Position numbers and translations under genes: made by a program. From Escherichia phage PHB12, in sequence record MK524178.1: a stretch of DNA of 64,000 nt; one strand, written 5' to 3'. A model generated the notes under the pieces. That model made no database searches. It saw only the letters and a program-made list of their open reading frames with translations, and had not been told where the DNA came from. Each line of letters begins with the position of its first letter. Within the stretch, counting starts at the first letter, position 1. Positions 9,539 to 59,151 of this stretch are shown here, piece by piece.

Positions 9539-10147
9539 TCAGTAACCGACAATAGACAGATTCCAGATTGTATAACTTCCATCTTGAATAATAGAATCTA
9601 CACGCAGTGTAGTCCCTATAGGGAGCATAAATTCACATTCGTCAGATATAAGTCTAGCATTAGACCGTCTTGTCGCTTCAGGGAAAGCTCCATTGAACTC
9701 ACAAGATGGCGCAGCCAGAATCATATTAAGCATATGTTCACGGAAGTTGAAAGCAAATGGTGCATCTTTGACGCAGAACATATTAAATGTTCCATAAAAA
9801 TTATATGAAGCGAAGTTACGTGCTACACCGAACACTGGACTAAAGCTCATTACTCTGTCAAATTTAATAATACTACCAACGCCTTTATCGTCGAGTGTGG
9901 ACATAGTTTTCTTAGAGATTCCACGATACATTGTCTCAGGAACAGAAGACGACCAATTTCTACGAACAATTGCACTTAAATCTTGTTGGATGCTGTCTGG
10001 CTTGTTTTCCATACATTGCCACAGTACACTTTGTTCAATGTCACTGAATTGCTCATCGATTTTGTACTGAAGTTCATCCTGATAGTCTGGGCATTGAGCA
10101 CGTCGAACCATTTCTTCAATTTCACACTCGTTATACGGCATAAACAT
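9539..10147 (-). CDS. modA: ADP-ribosyltransferase, ModA/ModB-like
   Basis: 202 aa (T4 ModA about 200 aa); candidate R-S-E triad: YRG, FS, DECEF; position after dda as in T4. Confidence 0.5.
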   Translation of the reverse strand: MFMPYNECEIEEMVRRAQCPDYQDELQYKIDEQFSDIEQSVLWQCMENKPDSIQQDLSAIVRRNWSSSVPETMYRGISKKTMSTLDDKGVGSIIKFDRVMSFSPVFGVARNFASYNFYGTFNMFCVKDAPFAFNFREHMLNMILAAPSCEFNGAFPEATRRSNARLISDECEFMLPIGTTLRVDSIIQDGSYTIWNLSIVGY

Positions 10148-10175
10148 TTAGGTTTCTCCTGTGGTTGATAAAAGT

Positions 10176-10204
10176 ATAGTATCATCGTCGGTAGAGTTTG
10201 TACA
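10176..10204 (-). promoter_or_regulatory. early promoter-like (TGTACA / TACTAT)
   Basis: Upstream of modA-like start; a second GTTTAC/TATGAT element at about 10306-10334. Confidence 0.4.
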
Positions 10205-10494
10205 CTAAAAATTCAACATTTTCAAATGAATGTTTTTGTTAGGTATTCGCGTTCTTGAAGTTCAGATTGACATGTCATGATAGACCTCCATTTAAAGATA
10301 AGCCTATCATAACACGAGAGGAGGGAATGTAAACTACTTTTTAAGCTTTCCTACTAAAGGTCCATCAGGACCAGGTTGTTCTAACATGAATAAGGATGCT
10401 TTAAAAAGCAATGTCAACCCTTTCACCATTCGATACCATGTCTCAAAGTCTTTTTCCTTGATTTCTAGTAAGAATTTCTCTTTAAATTTCTCTT

Positions 10495-10683
10495 TCATTT
10501 CCAAGGACTCCATGGTGGAGGGTCGTCATAATAAGAGGCAAGGTCTTTCAAGGCTTCAACAGGTAAACTAAAGCCATGTCGTTGTATAATACTATCTAGT
10601 TCATCAACAAGTTCACTACGATGCACTTTAGGAGCCTCAACTTCAGGCTCATCAAACATACTCATCAAGTCCATATTATTCAC
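10495..10683 (-). CDS. hypothetical acidic protein
   Basis: 62-aa ORF. Confidence 0.35.
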   Translation of the reverse strand: MNNMDLMSMFDEPEVEAPKVHRSELVDELDSIIQRHGFSLPVEALKDLASYYDDPPPWSPWK

Positions 10684-14696: not shown

Positions 14697-15356
14697 TTAA
14701 CCTCGATTCATAAATGCATTAAATATTTGGTCATCAACAGAAATTTCTAATTCGACTTCAATTGTTTCAGCCTTTTCTTCAGGTGGTAATTCGTATCCAC
14801 ACACTACAATTTTTTCATCGATATCAAAATATACAGAAGCAATACGATTAATGTTATTTTCGGTTAAGTCTAAATCAACATCAACGTCTTTTTGACCTAC
14901 ACTTAAAGGATAACTAATACGGGTTATTTTATTATCTTTAACAAAGAGTCCACCGACATACTCTGTACTACGTTTGAAGTTTACACGTTTCCGAAATGAA
15001 AGATATGATGCATCTTTACCGTGAGCTCGGCTCATAGGACATAATGAATAGCTAGAATAAGAGATGTCAAATCCTACACCTTCAATATGAGCCAACGCGT
15101 CATGATTAAACCAATTATAATCATATGCCAAATCCATTATATTGTAATATGTGAAAGGCACCGGATTAACATCGTACGTTGTACCTTTAAAATCTGCCCA
15201 GGCAACGATTTCGTTATCTTTAACAATTACAAAAATTACACCAATATGGTATCCGTTATTATTTTCATTCGGCGTTATATTATAACATTGTGCATTAGGA
15301 AATTTACCATATTTAAACGGCGCATTTTTGTGCATATAATAAATCATATTATTCAC
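14697..15356 (-). CDS. hypothetical protein (61.2 position)
   Basis: 219-aa ORF. Confidence 0.45.
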   Translation of the reverse strand: MNNMIYYMHKNAPFKYGKFPNAQCYNITPNENNNGYHIGVIFVIVKDNEIVAWADFKGTTYDVNPVPFTYYNIMDLAYDYNWFNHDALAHIEGVGFDISYSSYSLCPMSRAHGKDASYLSFRKRVNFKRSTEYVGGLFVKDNKITRISYPLSVGQKDVDVDLDLTENNINRIASVYFDIDEKIVVCGYELPPEEKAETIEVELEISVDDQIFNAFMNRG

Positions 15357-16454: not shown

Positions 16455-16643
16455 TTATCGAAAATCTGCTTCGAAAACTTTCTCGTCATTAACAAATGCT
16501 TTAACTAATGCGTTGTTCACTTCAGCAAGTTGTACCGCAACCCACTCGATTTCTTCGCGATCACCTGATAACATGATATCTTTAGTGAACATCTCACCGC
16601 TTTTAAACCAACCAATAAAAGTAACTTTAGTTAATTTGCTCAT
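16455..16643 (-). CDS. dmd: Dmd antitoxin (inhibitor of host RnlA/LsoA)
   Basis: MSKLTKVTFIGWFKSGEMFTKDI...AEVNNALVKAF.ND.KV.E.D.R matches T4 Dmd (about 60 aa). Confidence 0.75.
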   Translation of the reverse strand: MSKLTKVTFIGWFKSGEMFTKDIMLSGDREEIEWVAVQLAEVNNALVKAFVNDEKVFEADFR

Positions 16644-54819: not shown

Positions 54820-55032
54820 TTAATTTTGGCCAGTATTTATTTTTCGCCTTTGGACGGCCTTAACATCTGCGAGGTATTTTTCCAGCTTACGCTTACGAGT
54901 ATAATCTGCTTTAGAACCGGTTTGACGGATATCCTCATTTAAATGAGAAATAGAATGTCCTAATTCTCTTCGGATTTCATCCAATTGGGTTACAGTAAGA
55001 TTACGAAGTTGTCTTTCGTTTAATTGCTGCAT
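54820..55032 (-). CDS. hypothetical protein
   Basis: 70 aa; TATAAATA late promoter upstream. Confidence 0.4.
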
Positions 55033-55056
55033 ATATACCTCTTGGTTAGATATTAG

Positions 55057-55064
55057 TATTTATA
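55057..55064 (-). promoter_or_regulatory. late promoter TATAAATA upstream of 54820..55032
   Basis: gttaTAAATActaatatctaaccaagaggtatatATG. Confidence 0.5.
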
Positions 55065-55641
55065 ACAACCCTGTCAAATCATTCCAATGCTTCCGGCATA
55101 ATGACACATATCTATCGGTGTCACCAATTTCAATTTGACTGCCATCTGTAATTGGAAGTCCGTCTTCAGTGACTCTAGCTACCATTGTGGCCTTTTTACC
55201 ACAATGACAGACACCTTTAAGTTCAACAAGCTTATCGGCAATAGCCATTAATGCTTGAGAACCTTCAAATAGATTACCTTTAAAATCTGTTCGTAGTCCA
55301 TATGCCATTACCGGCACATTGTATACGTCAACAATACGACTAAGTTGATACACCTTTTCAGTAGTTAAGAACTGAGCTTCGTCAACAAATACACAATGAA
55401 TATCCTTTTGTGCTGCAGCCCATTTATAGAATTCAAAGATATCCATGTCTTTTGTAATTATATTGGCGTCCTGACGAATACCAATACGAGAGACTATTTC
55501 ACCTTTTGAATCGCGAGTATCAATAGCCGGTTTAAGAACTAATACACCCATGCCACGTTCTTTATAGTTATGTGCGGCAGTAAGTAATGAAGCAGACTTA
55601 CCAGCGTTCATAGCGGCATATGTAAAAATTAAACTAGCCAT
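55060..55641 (-). CDS. tk: thymidine kinase
   Basis: 193 aa; MASLIFTYAAMNAGKSASLL P-loop, CHCGKKA zinc site; matches T4 Tk. Confidence 0.9.
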   Translation of the reverse strand: MASLIFTYAAMNAGKSASLLTAAHNYKERGMGVLVLKPAIDTRDSKGEIVSRIGIRQDANIITKDMDIFEFYKWAAAQKDIHCVFVDEAQFLTTEKVYQLSRIVDVYNVPVMAYGLRTDFKGNLFEGSQALMAIADKLVELKGVCHCGKKATMVARVTEDGLPITDGSQIEIGDTDRYVSLCRKHWNDLTGLL

Positions 55642-55831
55642 AAGAGTCCTTAGTTAAATTTTCTAAATATGTTTCTAAATCATTTTCAGCTTTATCGATA
55701 GATTTTACTAATTCGTAGTATGTTTCAGCATCTCCATAATCCGAAGCCAATTCAAAAGATAAATCTCGTTCTAAACCAATAATTTCGCTGATTAAAAATC
55801 GTATTTCATTCTTTTGTTCGCGAGTAATCAT
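55634..55831 (-). CDS. hypothetical protein (tk.1 position)
   Basis: 65-aa acidic ORF. Confidence 0.35.
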   Translation of the reverse strand: MITREQKNEIRFLISEIIGLERDLSFELASDYGDAETYYELVKSIDKAENDLETYLENLTKDSYG

Positions 55832-56019
55832 AAGGAATTTATATAATCAATAAGTTCTTGTTCTTTATCGTCGAAATCTTTACACAGTTCTTCATATTCA
55901 TCGGTATTAAAAGGACCGCATTCATCACAAACTTTTTCCAATTCATTGTTTTTATCCATAACTTCATGAATAAGAGAAAACAGTCTGTCTTTTTGTTCTT
56001 TGCTTAAACTCATAACCAT
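55828..56019 (-). CDS. hypothetical protein
   Basis: 63-aa acidic ORF. Confidence 0.35.
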   Translation of the reverse strand: MVMSLSKEQKDRLFSLIHEVMDKNNELEKVCDECGPFNTDEYEELCKDFDDKEQELIDYINSL

Positions 56020-56237
56020 GTCACCTTTAAGCAGTATTCTTCTACATGTTGTTTACGACCTTTCTTATCAATAAAGGTATATTCAACGAATGTTCCAATG
56101 TAGTCTTTATCTACATCATGTGGACTATTAATTGGGCATTTAGTACGACAAATGCGTTCCCATTGACGAATAATTACTGCCTTATTCTTTGGGTCGTATG
56201 GATGTGGATAATGTATATTCATAATAATGGTTCCCAA
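56010..56237 (-). CDS. hypothetical protein
   Basis: 75-aa ORF. Confidence 0.35.
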   Translation of the reverse strand: MGTIIMNIHYPHPYDPKNKAVIIRQWERICRTKCPINSPHDVDKDYIGTFVEYTFIDKKGRKQHVEEYCLKVTWL

Positions 56238-56716
56238 TCAACAATCACAATTTCTAGTTTAGTGGAATACGTATCTAAAATCTCTTCGATGACAACCCAG
56301 TTTCCACCACCGATACCTGCACCAATTCTTGGCATATAAATTACAGGCTTTGTTATCTTATTCTTTCCGAATTCATTTAATTCTATTATACAATTCATTA
56401 AAGCAAAGTACTCAAAATTAGGTCCCGGCTCAAACTGTGTATAAAGATTAAAGCAATAAGCTTTATGGGTCTTAAAATATTTTTCATAAACCGAATAAGT
56501 CCCGAGTTTAGACTCGTCTCCGAATTCGGTTTGAAGTTTATCGGCTTCTAAAATTTTTGGATAAGCCTTTGCTAATTGTCCTGCCACACCAGCGCCCATT
56601 GTATGAAAACAATTACACCCATGAGCAATATTATTACCTTTAGAAAACAGGGCGACAATATCGCCCTTGATATAGTTTTTAATCACTTGCTGCAAGTCCT
56701 CTAGTATAAGAGTCAA
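56219..56716 (-). CDS. macro-domain protein (ADP-ribose binding/hydrolase fold)
   Basis: 165 aa; GCNCFHTMGAGVAGQLAKAYP and PRIGAGIGGGNW resemble the two macro-domain glycine-rich motifs. Confidence 0.55.
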   Translation of the reverse strand: MTLILEDLQQVIKNYIKGDIVALFSKGNNIAHGCNCFHTMGAGVAGQLAKAYPKILEADKLQTEFGDESKLGTYSVYEKYFKTHKAYCFNLYTQFEPGPNFEYFALMNCIIELNEFGKNKITKPVIYMPRIGAGIGGGNWVVIEEILDTYSTKLEIVIVDWEPLL

Positions 56717-57026
56717 CTAGACGGTCCACCATAGAATTGCATGCTGCCTTATCTTTAGGTTCCGCCACCGAGCATTCTAATATTTGCCATTTTTTATGAT
56801 ATCGTTTAATTAAGGTAGACGCCTTGAACCTACTAGACGCCCCATCTTTTTCTCCGTCTTTATATGCGTATAACAATTTTTGTGAAAAATCTACTTTACA
56901 CTCTTGACTTTTACCACAATAATCAGATGCCGTTCTGTTTGTATACTCCGTTACATCAGTATATGTAGTATTAGCAAGAGCGTTAAATGAAACCAAGCCA
57001 ACTATTAAAGCCAACATTTTGGTCAT
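56679..57026 (-). CDS. secreted protein
   Basis: 115 aa with N-terminal signal peptide; four Cys. Confidence 0.4.
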   Translation of the reverse strand: MTKMLALIVGLVSFNALANTTYTDVTEYTNRTASDYCGKSQECKVDFSQKLLYAYKDGEKDGASSRFKASTLIKRYHKKWQILECSVAEPKDKAACNSMVDRLVDSYTRGLAASD

Positions 57027-57565
57027 TCTTTTATTTCCAGTAGTTTATTTGATTTAAGGTAATTAGCCTTTTCTAGGACTTCAGAAGCATATTTACTTCC
57101 AGCACTTGTCTTCCATCCCGCATTATATGAGGATATAGCTTTTCTTATATCCCCGTTATGTATATTTAACCAATAAGAAAATTCGATATAAGCCCATCTG
57201 GCTGAATTAGACCGCTTAGATAGCATTTTCTTAATTTGGGCATCAGTCATATTATAACCAAGCTGGTTAATTCTTGCCCTCATTGTCGGTAGATAATTTT
57301 GGAACATTCCATACGCATGGTGACCTTTCTTATCTTTAAGATTAATACCGGCAGATGATTCCTGCCATAGTATTGCGGCCATTATGTATCCAAGTCCTTT
57401 CTTATGCATATTTTCATGCGTTTTAAATTTTCCATCCTTAGAAAACTGTTCCCCAAACTGATAAGCATAATTCAAGTTATCGAGTTGGACATTACTAAAA
57501 GTATGCTCGGAGCTATGTGCTGATAACGAAAGAGCAAATAGACCAGCGAGTAGTGCTTTTCTCAT
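57023..57565 (-). CDS. secreted lytic-transglycosylase-like protein (SLT domain)
   Basis: Signal peptide MRKALLAGLFALSLSA; WQESS, AYGMFQ, SSYNAGW motifs. Confidence 0.55.
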   Translation of the reverse strand: MRKALLAGLFALSLSAHSSEHTFSNVQLDNLNYAYQFGEQFSKDGKFKTHENMHKKGLGYIMAAILWQESSAGINLKDKKGHHAYGMFQNYLPTMRARINQLGYNMTDAQIKKMLSKRSNSARWAYIEFSYWLNIHNGDIRKAISSYNAGWKTSAGSKYASEVLEKANYLKSNKLLEIKE

Positions 57566-57573
57566 GTTTACCT

Positions 57574-58032
57574 CTAGATTTTAATCACTGCTTTAGAAGC
57601 TTTTCCTGGTAGTCGTTTATTGTTAATAATAGCCATTCTGCATTGAAGAGTCTTCATTTTGAATGCTGGATTTTCACGACAAACTGTAAGTCCTAACCAA
57701 AGATTTCCATCAGTTATTTCTAAACGGCCTGGGCGATATTCGACACCTTCGACAAAATCTTCATCAACATCTGGACGGGCCGGCATTGATAAAAATTCTG
57801 CAACTTCTTTAACATGATTTTTTACTTTACGAAATAATTCAAAAACGTAGTTCTCATCTATTTCTCTCTGGATGGCACGATCTAAGAGATGTTGAGAATA
57901 CTTGATATGAAAGCCTGGTAGTCCAAGAGACTTTGCAGCATCTTTTATACCGGCATTTATTTTGCGGAACTCCGTTTCAAAGATTCGACGGAGTTTATTA
58001 CGGCGGATAAAAACGTCTGAATTGATAGTCAT
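57574..58032 (-). CDS. regB: endoribonuclease RegB
   Basis: 152 aa; FIRRNKLRR.FE.EFR.IN, YSQHLLDRAIQREIDE, GRLEITDGNLWLG match T4 RegB. Confidence 0.85.
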   Translation of the reverse strand: MTINSDVFIRRNKLRRIFETEFRKINAGIKDAAKSLGLPGFHIKYSQHLLDRAIQREIDENYVFELFRKVKNHVKEVAEFLSMPARPDVDEDFVEGVEYRPGRLEITDGNLWLGLTVCRENPAFKMKTLQCRMAIINNKRLPGKASKAVIKI

Positions 58033-58060
58033 TTTGATTTCTCCTCTAGTTGACAGGTCT

Positions 58061-58089
58061 ATAGTAACACAACTAGAGGAGAAGTAAAC
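58061..58089 (-). promoter_or_regulatory. early promoter for regB (GTTTAC / TACTAT) nested in 12-bp inverted repeat
   Basis: Arms ctcctctagttg (58041-58052) and caactagaggag (58070-58081); downstream arm holds the RBS GAGGAG. Confidence 0.55.
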
Positions 58090-58093
58090 TACT

Positions 58094-58309
58094 TTATTGA
58101 TAAAATGGAGTTAAAGCCCAAGATTCTTTAGATACCATGTTGGCGAAATGCCTCATCTCTTCGATTTGGCGACGACGCTGGTCAGCATAGTCTTCTTCGC
58201 CTTCTTCCTTACAATCTTCAAGGTCTTCTTCAAGATACTTTAAGTATTCACTACAAATTTTGTTGACCTTTTCTTGAAAGTCCAATAACCCAGTAATAGT
58301 AGAAGCCAT
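58094..58309 (-). CDS. hypothetical acidic protein
   Basis: 71-aa ORF. Confidence 0.35.
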   Translation of the reverse strand: MASTITGLLDFQEKVNKICSEYLKYLEEDLEDCKEEGEEDYADQRRRQIEEMRHFANMVSKESWALTPFYQ

Positions 58310-58575
58310 TAGTATTTTTCCTCAGGTCGAAATACTGCACGACATGCCCACATGCTGGCTTCTTTTAGATGTTGCTTAGCATACTTAAGAGCCTGCACTG
58401 CATCCATATCTTCTTTGGTTTGTTGCTCTGATTCATTTTCTTTCAAGATATATGCTTCTTCAATCAGAGCATCAAACATCAATCCAAGACGGACTTCTGC
58501 ATCTTTAATAGCGTTCACTTTACTGATTTTATCATCGGTATGCGGCTTGTAGCCTTTGATGTCTTCAATCGACAT
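58309..58575 (-). CDS. hypothetical protein
   Basis: Start at MSIEDIKGYK after GAGGAAA; the track's longer N-terminus is out-of-frame overlap. Confidence 0.4.
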   Translation of the reverse strand: MSIEDIKGYKPHTDDKISKVNAIKDAEVRLGLMFDALIEEAYILKENESEQQTKEDMDAVQALKYAKQHLKEASMWACRAVFRPEEKY

Positions 58576-58789
58576 AAGGAATTTCCTCATCGGTGGCAAG
58601 GTCATATTCGACCAATTGGATAGGCTCGTTAATACCATATCCACGTACAGTGATATCGGTTGTCGGATATTTTCCAGTAATATCACCCATTCTAAATGCT
58701 TCAGTGAATGATTGCTCGCCTGAGCAACTAAACCAGGCGGCAAAACATTTTAAAACATCTTCAGACCCTTCTATAATCAATTTAGCCAT
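58565..58789 (-). CDS. hypothetical protein
   Basis: 74-aa ORF. Confidence 0.35.
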   Translation of the reverse strand: MAKLIIEGSEDVLKCFAAWFSCSGEQSFTEAFRMGDITGKYPTTDITVRGYGINEPIQLVEYDLATDEEIPYVD

Positions 58790-59151
58790 TATAGACTCTC
58801 AGTAAAGGTACGAGCGATAACGTCGCGTTGCTGTTCTGGAGTCAGAGAGTTAAAGCGAACTGCATAACCGGATACACGGATGGTCAGCTGTGGATATTTT
58901 TCCGGATGCTTAACTGCATCTTCCAGAGTTTCACGACGCAGAACGTTAACGTTCAGATGTTGACCACCTTCAATTTTAACTTTAGGTTGATGTTCAATTT
59001 CAATTTCACGGGCATTCAAACCGTAGAAAATTTCCGGGTCTACAATAGCGTCTTCTTTAAAAGTCTTAGAGACGATAATCCGGGCTTGAGTACCGTCTTC
59101 AAAATAAATAGTGCCTTTATGTGCACCTTCAAGAATTTGATATGCTTTCAT
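58789..59151 (-). CDS. autonomous glycyl radical cofactor (GrcA/YfiD-like)
   Basis: 120 aa; C-terminal [56 protein letters not shown] is the glycyl-radical domain of PFL/GrcA (radical Gly in RVSGYAV). Confidence 0.8.

Follow-up and report, generated by a model that had tools for sequence, protein, structure and literature searches.

The tk.4/adfM ortholog of an RB69-like T-even phage encodes an ALC1-like macrodomain with a predicted glutamine-type active site

The DNA analyzed here, a stretch of 64,000 nucleotides from Escherichia phage PHB12 (MK524178.1) that we refer to as the window, encodes a single-domain macrodomain protein of 155 amino acids at 56219..56686 on the minus strand. The identification rests on 83% protein identity to Tk.4 (AdfM) of phage T4, on matches to Pfam Macro and PHROG 335, and on an AlphaFold (AF2) model. 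A previous sequence-only reading had described a macrodomain gene near tk, and the thymidine kinase gene, recognized as an open reading frame and by its annotation in close relatives and T4, does lie nearby at 55060..55641 (minus strand), with tk.1, tk.2 and tk.3 in between. The gene order tk, tk.1, tk.2, tk.3, tk.4, vs, vs.1, regB is common to the window and T4. The upstream neighbor of tk.4 is vs, which encodes the valyl-tRNA synthetase modifier (56679..57026, minus strand; PHROG 1256, order as in T4), and the downstream neighbor is tk.3 (56010..56222, minus strand; Pfam DUF7202, E 2e-38). The TAA stop codon of vs (56681-56679) begins 2 nt past the tk.4 GTG (GTGATTAA), and the ATG of tk.3 (56222-56220) overlaps the tk.4 stop codon (ATGA), a layout that is identical in phage moskry. 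Such tight packing is typical of the early region of T-even phages. Over the 3.1 kb surrounding the gene, the window shares 97-98% identity with many coliphages of the genus Mosigvirus, and it stems from a Mosigvirus, an RB69-like T-even phage.

The longest open reading frame at the locus extends from 56219 to 56716 on the minus strand and would encode 165 amino acids from a TTG codon. This is the span originally assigned to the gene, and it does contain both of the motifs then quoted, GCNCFHTMGAGVAGQLAKAYP and PRIGAGIGGGNW, but its start requires revision. Most likely, translation begins at the GTG codon at 56686-56684 and yields 155 amino acids up to the TGA stop codon at 56221-56219: in the alignment, the start ATG of T4 tk.4 falls on this GTG, and in T4 a TAG in the same frame directly precedes that ATG. 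The T4 alignment begins at residue 11 of the window open reading frame and is gap-free from there. Five further T-even phages have an ATG in the column of the window GTG, and in phage moskry, which is 97% identical, the GTG is also present and a 468-nt coding sequence is annotated from it. In view of the T4 alignment, the ATG column and the moskry annotation, the TTG at 56716 was discarded as a start codon for tk.4. The 30 nt 5' of position 56686 are the 3' end of vs.

The beginning of the gene contains a terminator-like element, a hairpin of 8 bp with a U-rich tail, which occupies codons 7-13 (56649..56667, minus strand). The hairpin, AGGGCGAU-AUU-GUCGCCCU GUUUUCU, is GC-rich and lies 17 nt past the start codon. 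Its 19 nt are unchanged in T4 and in slur04 (whose protein is 58% identical to that of the window), and a single base change, in the loop, distinguishes the version of Dhakavirus UP19; in CC31 and a Jiaodavirus the hairpin is lost. The conservation of the hairpin codons (6/7, vs ~0.55 elsewhere) corresponds to P ~0.1 per pair and is therefore only suggestive. The element might serve as an attenuator, mark the end of a transcript or couple translation, and its significance is uncertain. A promoter scan found 12 sites, fewer than the 16.8 in shuffled controls, and for this reason no promoter was assigned. Rfam families had no match across 55000-59000. The vs.1 homolog on the other side of vs (57023-57565, minus strand) encodes 180 amino acids with a signal-peptide-like N-terminus and matches the SLT lytic transglycosylase domain only weakly (18.8 bits, below the threshold of 21.3). 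In public records vs.1 is labeled either "endoribonuclease" or "lytic transglycosylase", so that some of these labels look wrong.

By sequence comparison, the tk.4 ortholog is a genuine gene under purifying selection. It is 81% identical to T4 tk.4 at the DNA level, and the proteins share 128 of 155 residues in a gap-free alignment (E 8e-102). The dN/dS ratio against T4 (0.074), the accumulation of differences at third codon positions (62 of 91), the existence of phage homologs and the Pfam Macro score all argue against a chance open reading frame. The PHROG 335 match has an E value of 5e-65. By tblastn, 2,788 of 50,697 phage records, or about 5%, contain a homolog, and the carriers include T-even genera, Felixounavirus, Pakpunavirus, Pseudomonas phages of ~91-93 kb and other large myoviruses. 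Tk.4-like macrodomains with 35-45% identity and the same NxYTQ motif, and with no DarT2 nearby, also occur in bacteria. They are common in Rhodobacteraceae (Ruegeria, Shimia, Roseovarius), Verrucomicrobiota, Hyphomicrobiaceae, Desulfobacteraceae and Hymenobacter; one of the bacterial homologs (P0095) sits on a short, phage-like contig.

That the protein contains a macrodomain, as first proposed from two glycine-rich motifs, is borne out by several lines of evidence. The Pfam Macro profile (PF01661) scores 23.8 bits, above the gathering score of 22, and the match covers 111 of 118 profile positions. The AF2 model, computed from an alignment of 55 homologs from which the T4 row was left out, has a mean pLDDT of 95.8 and the three-layer alpha/beta macro fold. 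A fold search gave the same answer: the top Foldseek matches in the PDB are TARG1, Poa1p, DarG and BT1257, all of them macrodomains. The protein is an ALC1-like macrodomain and belongs to the class of TARG1, DarG, Poa1p and SCO6735 (described in PMC9967889).

The two quoted motifs align with loops of SCO6735, which is consistent with their predicted role as ADP-ribose-binding motifs. According to family alignments, the first of them, GCNCFHTMGAGVAGQLAKAYP, comprises residues 23-43 (56558..56620, minus strand) and holds the invariant N25 and G31-x-G33, with H22 just upstream (56621-56623). H22, N25 and the GxG all have counterparts in SCO6735, which for the former two are His24 and Asn27, and N25 also aligns with N23 of the PhiKZ protein AdfM, the mutation of which lowers activity (PMC13309987). 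The second, PRIGAGIGGGNW, would be the phosphate-binding loop, with residues 119-130 (56297..56332, minus strand), and it aligns with PRIGCGLAGGTW of SCO6735 and PRIGCGLAGGKW of BT1257. G122 and G124 of the window protein take the positions of Gly126 and Gly128 in SCO6735. The residue correspondence with SCO6735 was read from a multiple alignment and from a chimeric query, made of the window N-terminus and a C-terminal fragment of SCO6735, which serves only to bring out the alignment and the score of which is no evidence.

Between the two motifs lies Gln84 (codon CAG, 56435..56437, minus strand), which aligns with K80 of DarG, K84 of TARG1 and Gln85 of SCO6735. The placement relies on a profile alignment to TARG1 and BT1257 and on a MAFFT alignment of the window protein with DarG, TARG1, BT1257, SCO6735 and PhiKZ gp104. 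All 55 aligned family members and all 80 bacterial homologs have Gln84; as the latter were retrieved by patterns from two other motifs, their count is not a selection artefact. K80 of DarG and K84 of TARG1 are catalytic lysines, and TARG1 additionally uses D125 (PMC9967889). In human TARG1, also called OARD1, K84 and D125 correspond to Q84 and G126 of the window protein. Taken together, these alignments suggest an active site of Gln type, with H22, N25, Q84, G122 and G124, and not of the Lys type of DarG and TARG1.

The Gln type is shared with two ALC1-like proteins of known structure, SCO6735 of Streptomyces coelicolor (PDB 5E3B) and BT1257 of Bacteroides (2AFC/2FG1). SCO6735 removes thymidine-linked ADP-ribose from DNA, and the Q85A mutation abolishes this activity; the proposed mechanism relies on a positioned water molecule and dispenses with a nucleophilic lysine. 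The similarity has limits, however. SCO6735 and BT1257 are just 23-31% identical to the window protein, and they have NMIGQ where the window protein has NLYTQ. A mobile loop after the Gln carries Lys89 and Lys94 in SCO6735, whereas in the window protein this loop lacks these lysines and is some 6 residues shorter, and Lys34 of SCO6735 is replaced by Ala. A role in DNA binding has been proposed for the Lys89/Lys94 loop and for Lys34. Moreover, SCO6735 and BT1257 are basic, whereas the window protein, with a pI of 5.9, is mildly acidic. PhiKZ AdfM, which has been validated biochemically, is even more acidic, and neither net charge nor pI separates DNA-acting macrodomains from others.

Two further macrodomains are relevant for their connection with DarT toxins, and both differ from the window protein. 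The DarG macrodomain (Thermus aquaticus 5M31/5M3E, M. tuberculosis 5M3I) is about 21% identical to it. Lys80 of DarG is a Gln in the window protein, the DarG motif FPTKxHWR with Trp83 is missing, and the C-terminal DarT-binding domain of DarG has no equivalent, as the protein covers only positions 4-145 of a profile with 329 positions. The scores against NCBIfam DarG (NF048014; 28.1 bits, cut-off 250) and PADLOC DarG (29.5 bits) are low. A tblastn search of the window with a single DarT2 query, which has limited sensitivity, gave nothing better than E 0.5 for darT, and the same kind of search with a single DarT2 query found no darT with an E value of 1 or lower at a distance of up to 4 kb from the 80 bacterial homologs. 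We therefore rejected membership in the DarG family proper, for which the scores are far below the cut-offs and the K80 motif, the DarT-binding domain and, in the single-query search, an adjacent darT are all missing. PhiKZ gp104, also named AdfM, resembles Tk.4 in being a free-standing macrodomain that a phage encodes and that acts against DarTG2 (PMC13309987), and its conserved Asn (N23) corresponds to N25 of the window protein. Removal of the DarT2 mark by gp104 has been proven biochemically, and the protein is imported into the phage nucleus, which does not apply to the window protein (Cell Rep 2026, PMC13309987). Unlike the window protein, however, gp104 is of true DarG type: it scores 132.9 bits with PADLOC DarG, matches DarG of M. 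tuberculosis with an E value of 9e-25 and has kept the Lys of FPTK. BLASTP aligns no more than 23 residues of gp104 and the window protein. By these comparisons, T4 Tk.4 and PhiKZ gp104 belong to two distinct subfamilies of macrodomains, although they presumably do the same job.

T4 Tk.4, now AdfM for "anti-DarT factor Macrodomain", likewise has 155 residues and is encoded between vs and tk.3. All family-invariant residues of T4 Tk.4 are also present in the window protein. The two differ by 27 substitutions and in their start codons (ATG in T4, GTG in the window); residue 127 is K in T4 and G, the family consensus, in the window. By position and similarity, the window gene is the syntenic ortholog of T4 tk.4. 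A long-standing note in the T4 RefSeq record reads "Tk.4; contains A1pp phosphatase motif", and several phage records label the ortholog "macro domain protein". In earlier work, T4 lacking adfA and adfN had kept its resistance to DarTG2, so that a further anti-DarTG2 factor was predicted. When a T4 transposon library was grown on a DarTG2 host, tk.4 was the single significant hit (bioRxiv 10.1101/2025.11.20.689424, November 2025). Because a clean deletion of tk.4 made T4 sensitive to DarTG2, the gene was renamed adfM, and the authors state that an enzymatic activity of Tk.4 that takes ADP-ribose off DNA "seems likely" (bioRxiv 10.1101/2025.11.20.689424). The earlier suggestion that the window macrodomain could reverse DarT-like DNA ADP-ribosylation agrees with these genetic data and gains support from them by way of the T4 ortholog (bioRxiv 10.1101/2025.11.20.689424). 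As the T4 adfM genetics are already published, the finding itself is not new: the gene is an ordinary ortholog, and gene and role were known beforehand. Our comparisons would add two points, an active site of Gln type and the apparent non-orthology with PhiKZ AdfM.

Other genes of the window also relate to ADP-ribosylation or to toxins. The sequence-only reading had noted an ADP-ribosyltransferase in the same genome, and a Mod-type gene is indeed present, as the only one in the window, at 9539..10147 (minus strand). It encodes 202 amino acids, matches PHROG 832 ("RNA polymerase ADP-ribosylase", E 2e-38) and is 32% identical to T4 ModB and 34% identical to ModA by tblastn. This single copy compares with modA and modB in T4 and with two annotated copies in Mosigvirus SF; the adjacent interval (10148-10680) contains only small open reading frames, including a modA.2 homolog at ~10495-10683. 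A homolog of T4 gene 61.2 (adfA, anti-DarT1 factor) lies at 14697..15347 (minus strand; tblastn 66% identity, E 9e-89). The presence of both adfA and tk.4 in one window points to a layered anti-DarT toolkit. In ...TENNINRIASVYFD, the adfA homolog carries an Arg in place of the His of T4; the Arg is residue 168 if numbering begins at the first Met and 164 if it begins at the second, and corresponds to the RB69-type R164 allele, which has been reported not to neutralize E. coli DarT1 (PMC11825919). A homolog of dmd, an anti-RnlA antitoxin-like factor, is encoded at 16458..16634 (minus strand). With 54% identity to its T4 counterpart, it shares an "anti-TA island" with adfA, as described for T4 (PMC9391042).

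Together, our data make it probable that the window gene is the adfM of a Mosigvirus, a free-standing macrodomain with a Gln-type site that acts in counter-defense by hydrolyzing DarT2-attached ADP-ribose off phage DNA. In this model, the DarT2 toxin of the host would put ADP-ribose onto thymidines of single-stranded phage DNA. The Tk.4 ortholog would hold the ADP-ribose with its two glycine-rich loops and cleave the bond between thymidine and ribose, so that the DNA could be replicated again. Given the Gln-type active site, catalysis would follow the proposal for SCO6735: the Gln would position the distal ribose, a water molecule held by the backbone would attack the bond, and a lysine nucleophile would not be needed. 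While fold, orthology, synteny, purifying selection and active-site residues are matters of observation, and the need for the gene on a DarTG2 host has been published for T4, we infer both the removal of ADP-ribose from DNA by the window protein and its Gln-based mechanism. Points against the model are the missing DarG lysine, the missing Lys89/Lys94 loop and Lys34 of SCO6735, and the mild acidity of the protein, although PhiKZ AdfM exceeds it in this respect. The presence of the family in about 5% of phage records and in many genera may indicate a substrate range broader than DarT2 products.

It is conceivable, if unlikely, that the Tk.4 ortholog blocks DarT2 mainly by binding, in a stoichiometric manner, and not by cleaning up the DNA. 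The catalytically dead variants SCO6735 Q85A, DarG K80A and TARG1 K84A still inhibit DarT in vitro, SCO6735 most strongly; AdfA and AdfB, two other factors from phages, seem to work by toxin binding (PMC11825919); and the catalytic Lys of DarG is missing from the window protein. The window protein also has no counterpart of the DarG domain that binds DarT, however, and its ADP-ribose pocket residues are invariant in distant phage and bacterial homologs. As this holds even for homologs without a DarT nearby, the pattern is that of an enzyme.

Slightly less credit still is due to a role in small-molecule housekeeping, either as an ADP-ribose-1''-phosphate phosphatase, like Poa1p, or as an O-acetyl-ADP-ribose deacetylase. 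Yeast Poa1p, a phosphatase of this kind with a long insertion, is in the same macrodomain class as the window protein and among its best sequence and structure matches, and H23 and S30 of Poa1p correspond to H22 and T29. Database names point in the same direction, with the A1pp note in T4 RefSeq, the phosphatase label of PHROG 335 and the label "O-acetyl-ADP-ribose deacetylase" of JGI homologs. The sole reported phenotype of tk.4 is, however, specific to DarTG2 (bioRxiv 10.1101/2025.11.20.689424). Moreover, the phosphatase and deacetylase names have been transferred from the domain. No source of ADP-ribose-1''-phosphate is known for T4 infection.

Highly improbable, finally, is the remaining suggestion of the sequence-only reading, a tuning of ModA-type marks, or more generally that the Tk.4 ortholog erases or tunes the phage's own Alt/Mod ADP-ribosylation or RNAylation on host proteins: one genome often holds eraser and writer genes and the window does encode a Mod-type transferase, but Alt, ModA and ModB modify arginine, whereas the targets of ALC1-like macrodomains are esters of acidic residues and thymidine, not arginine. 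The spread of the Tk.4 family beyond T-even phages, to Felixounavirus, Pakpunavirus and bacteria, may also speak against this role, and no growth phenotype of tk.4 has been reported without DarTG2 (bioRxiv 10.1101/2025.11.20.689424).

Returning to the counter-defense model, the origin of the enzyme deserves comment. The lack of DarT2 near the homologs, in a search with a single DarT2 query, speaks against a family that would simply be a DarG antitoxin stolen by phages. We lean, though not strongly, towards the view that Tk.4/AdfM represents an independent, ancient Gln-type lineage, present in about 5% of sequenced phages and, with no DarT partner, in many bacteria, that was not captured from DarG and that removes thymidine-linked, perhaps also other nucleic-acid-linked, ADP-ribose in a lysine-independent manner. 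DNA de-ADP-ribosylases would then have been taken up by phages on at least two occasions, out of different subfamilies of macrodomains, and T4 Tk.4 and PhiKZ gp104 would be non-orthologous. Caution is warranted with the name AdfM, which now spans two macrodomain subfamilies. The Gln in place of the Lys suggests that the chemistry of DarG is not simply transferable to the T-even enzyme, which makes this a question for enzymology. Biologically, tk.4/adfM helps to explain the natural resistance of T-even phages to DarTG2, which matters for the choice and engineering of therapeutic coliphages.
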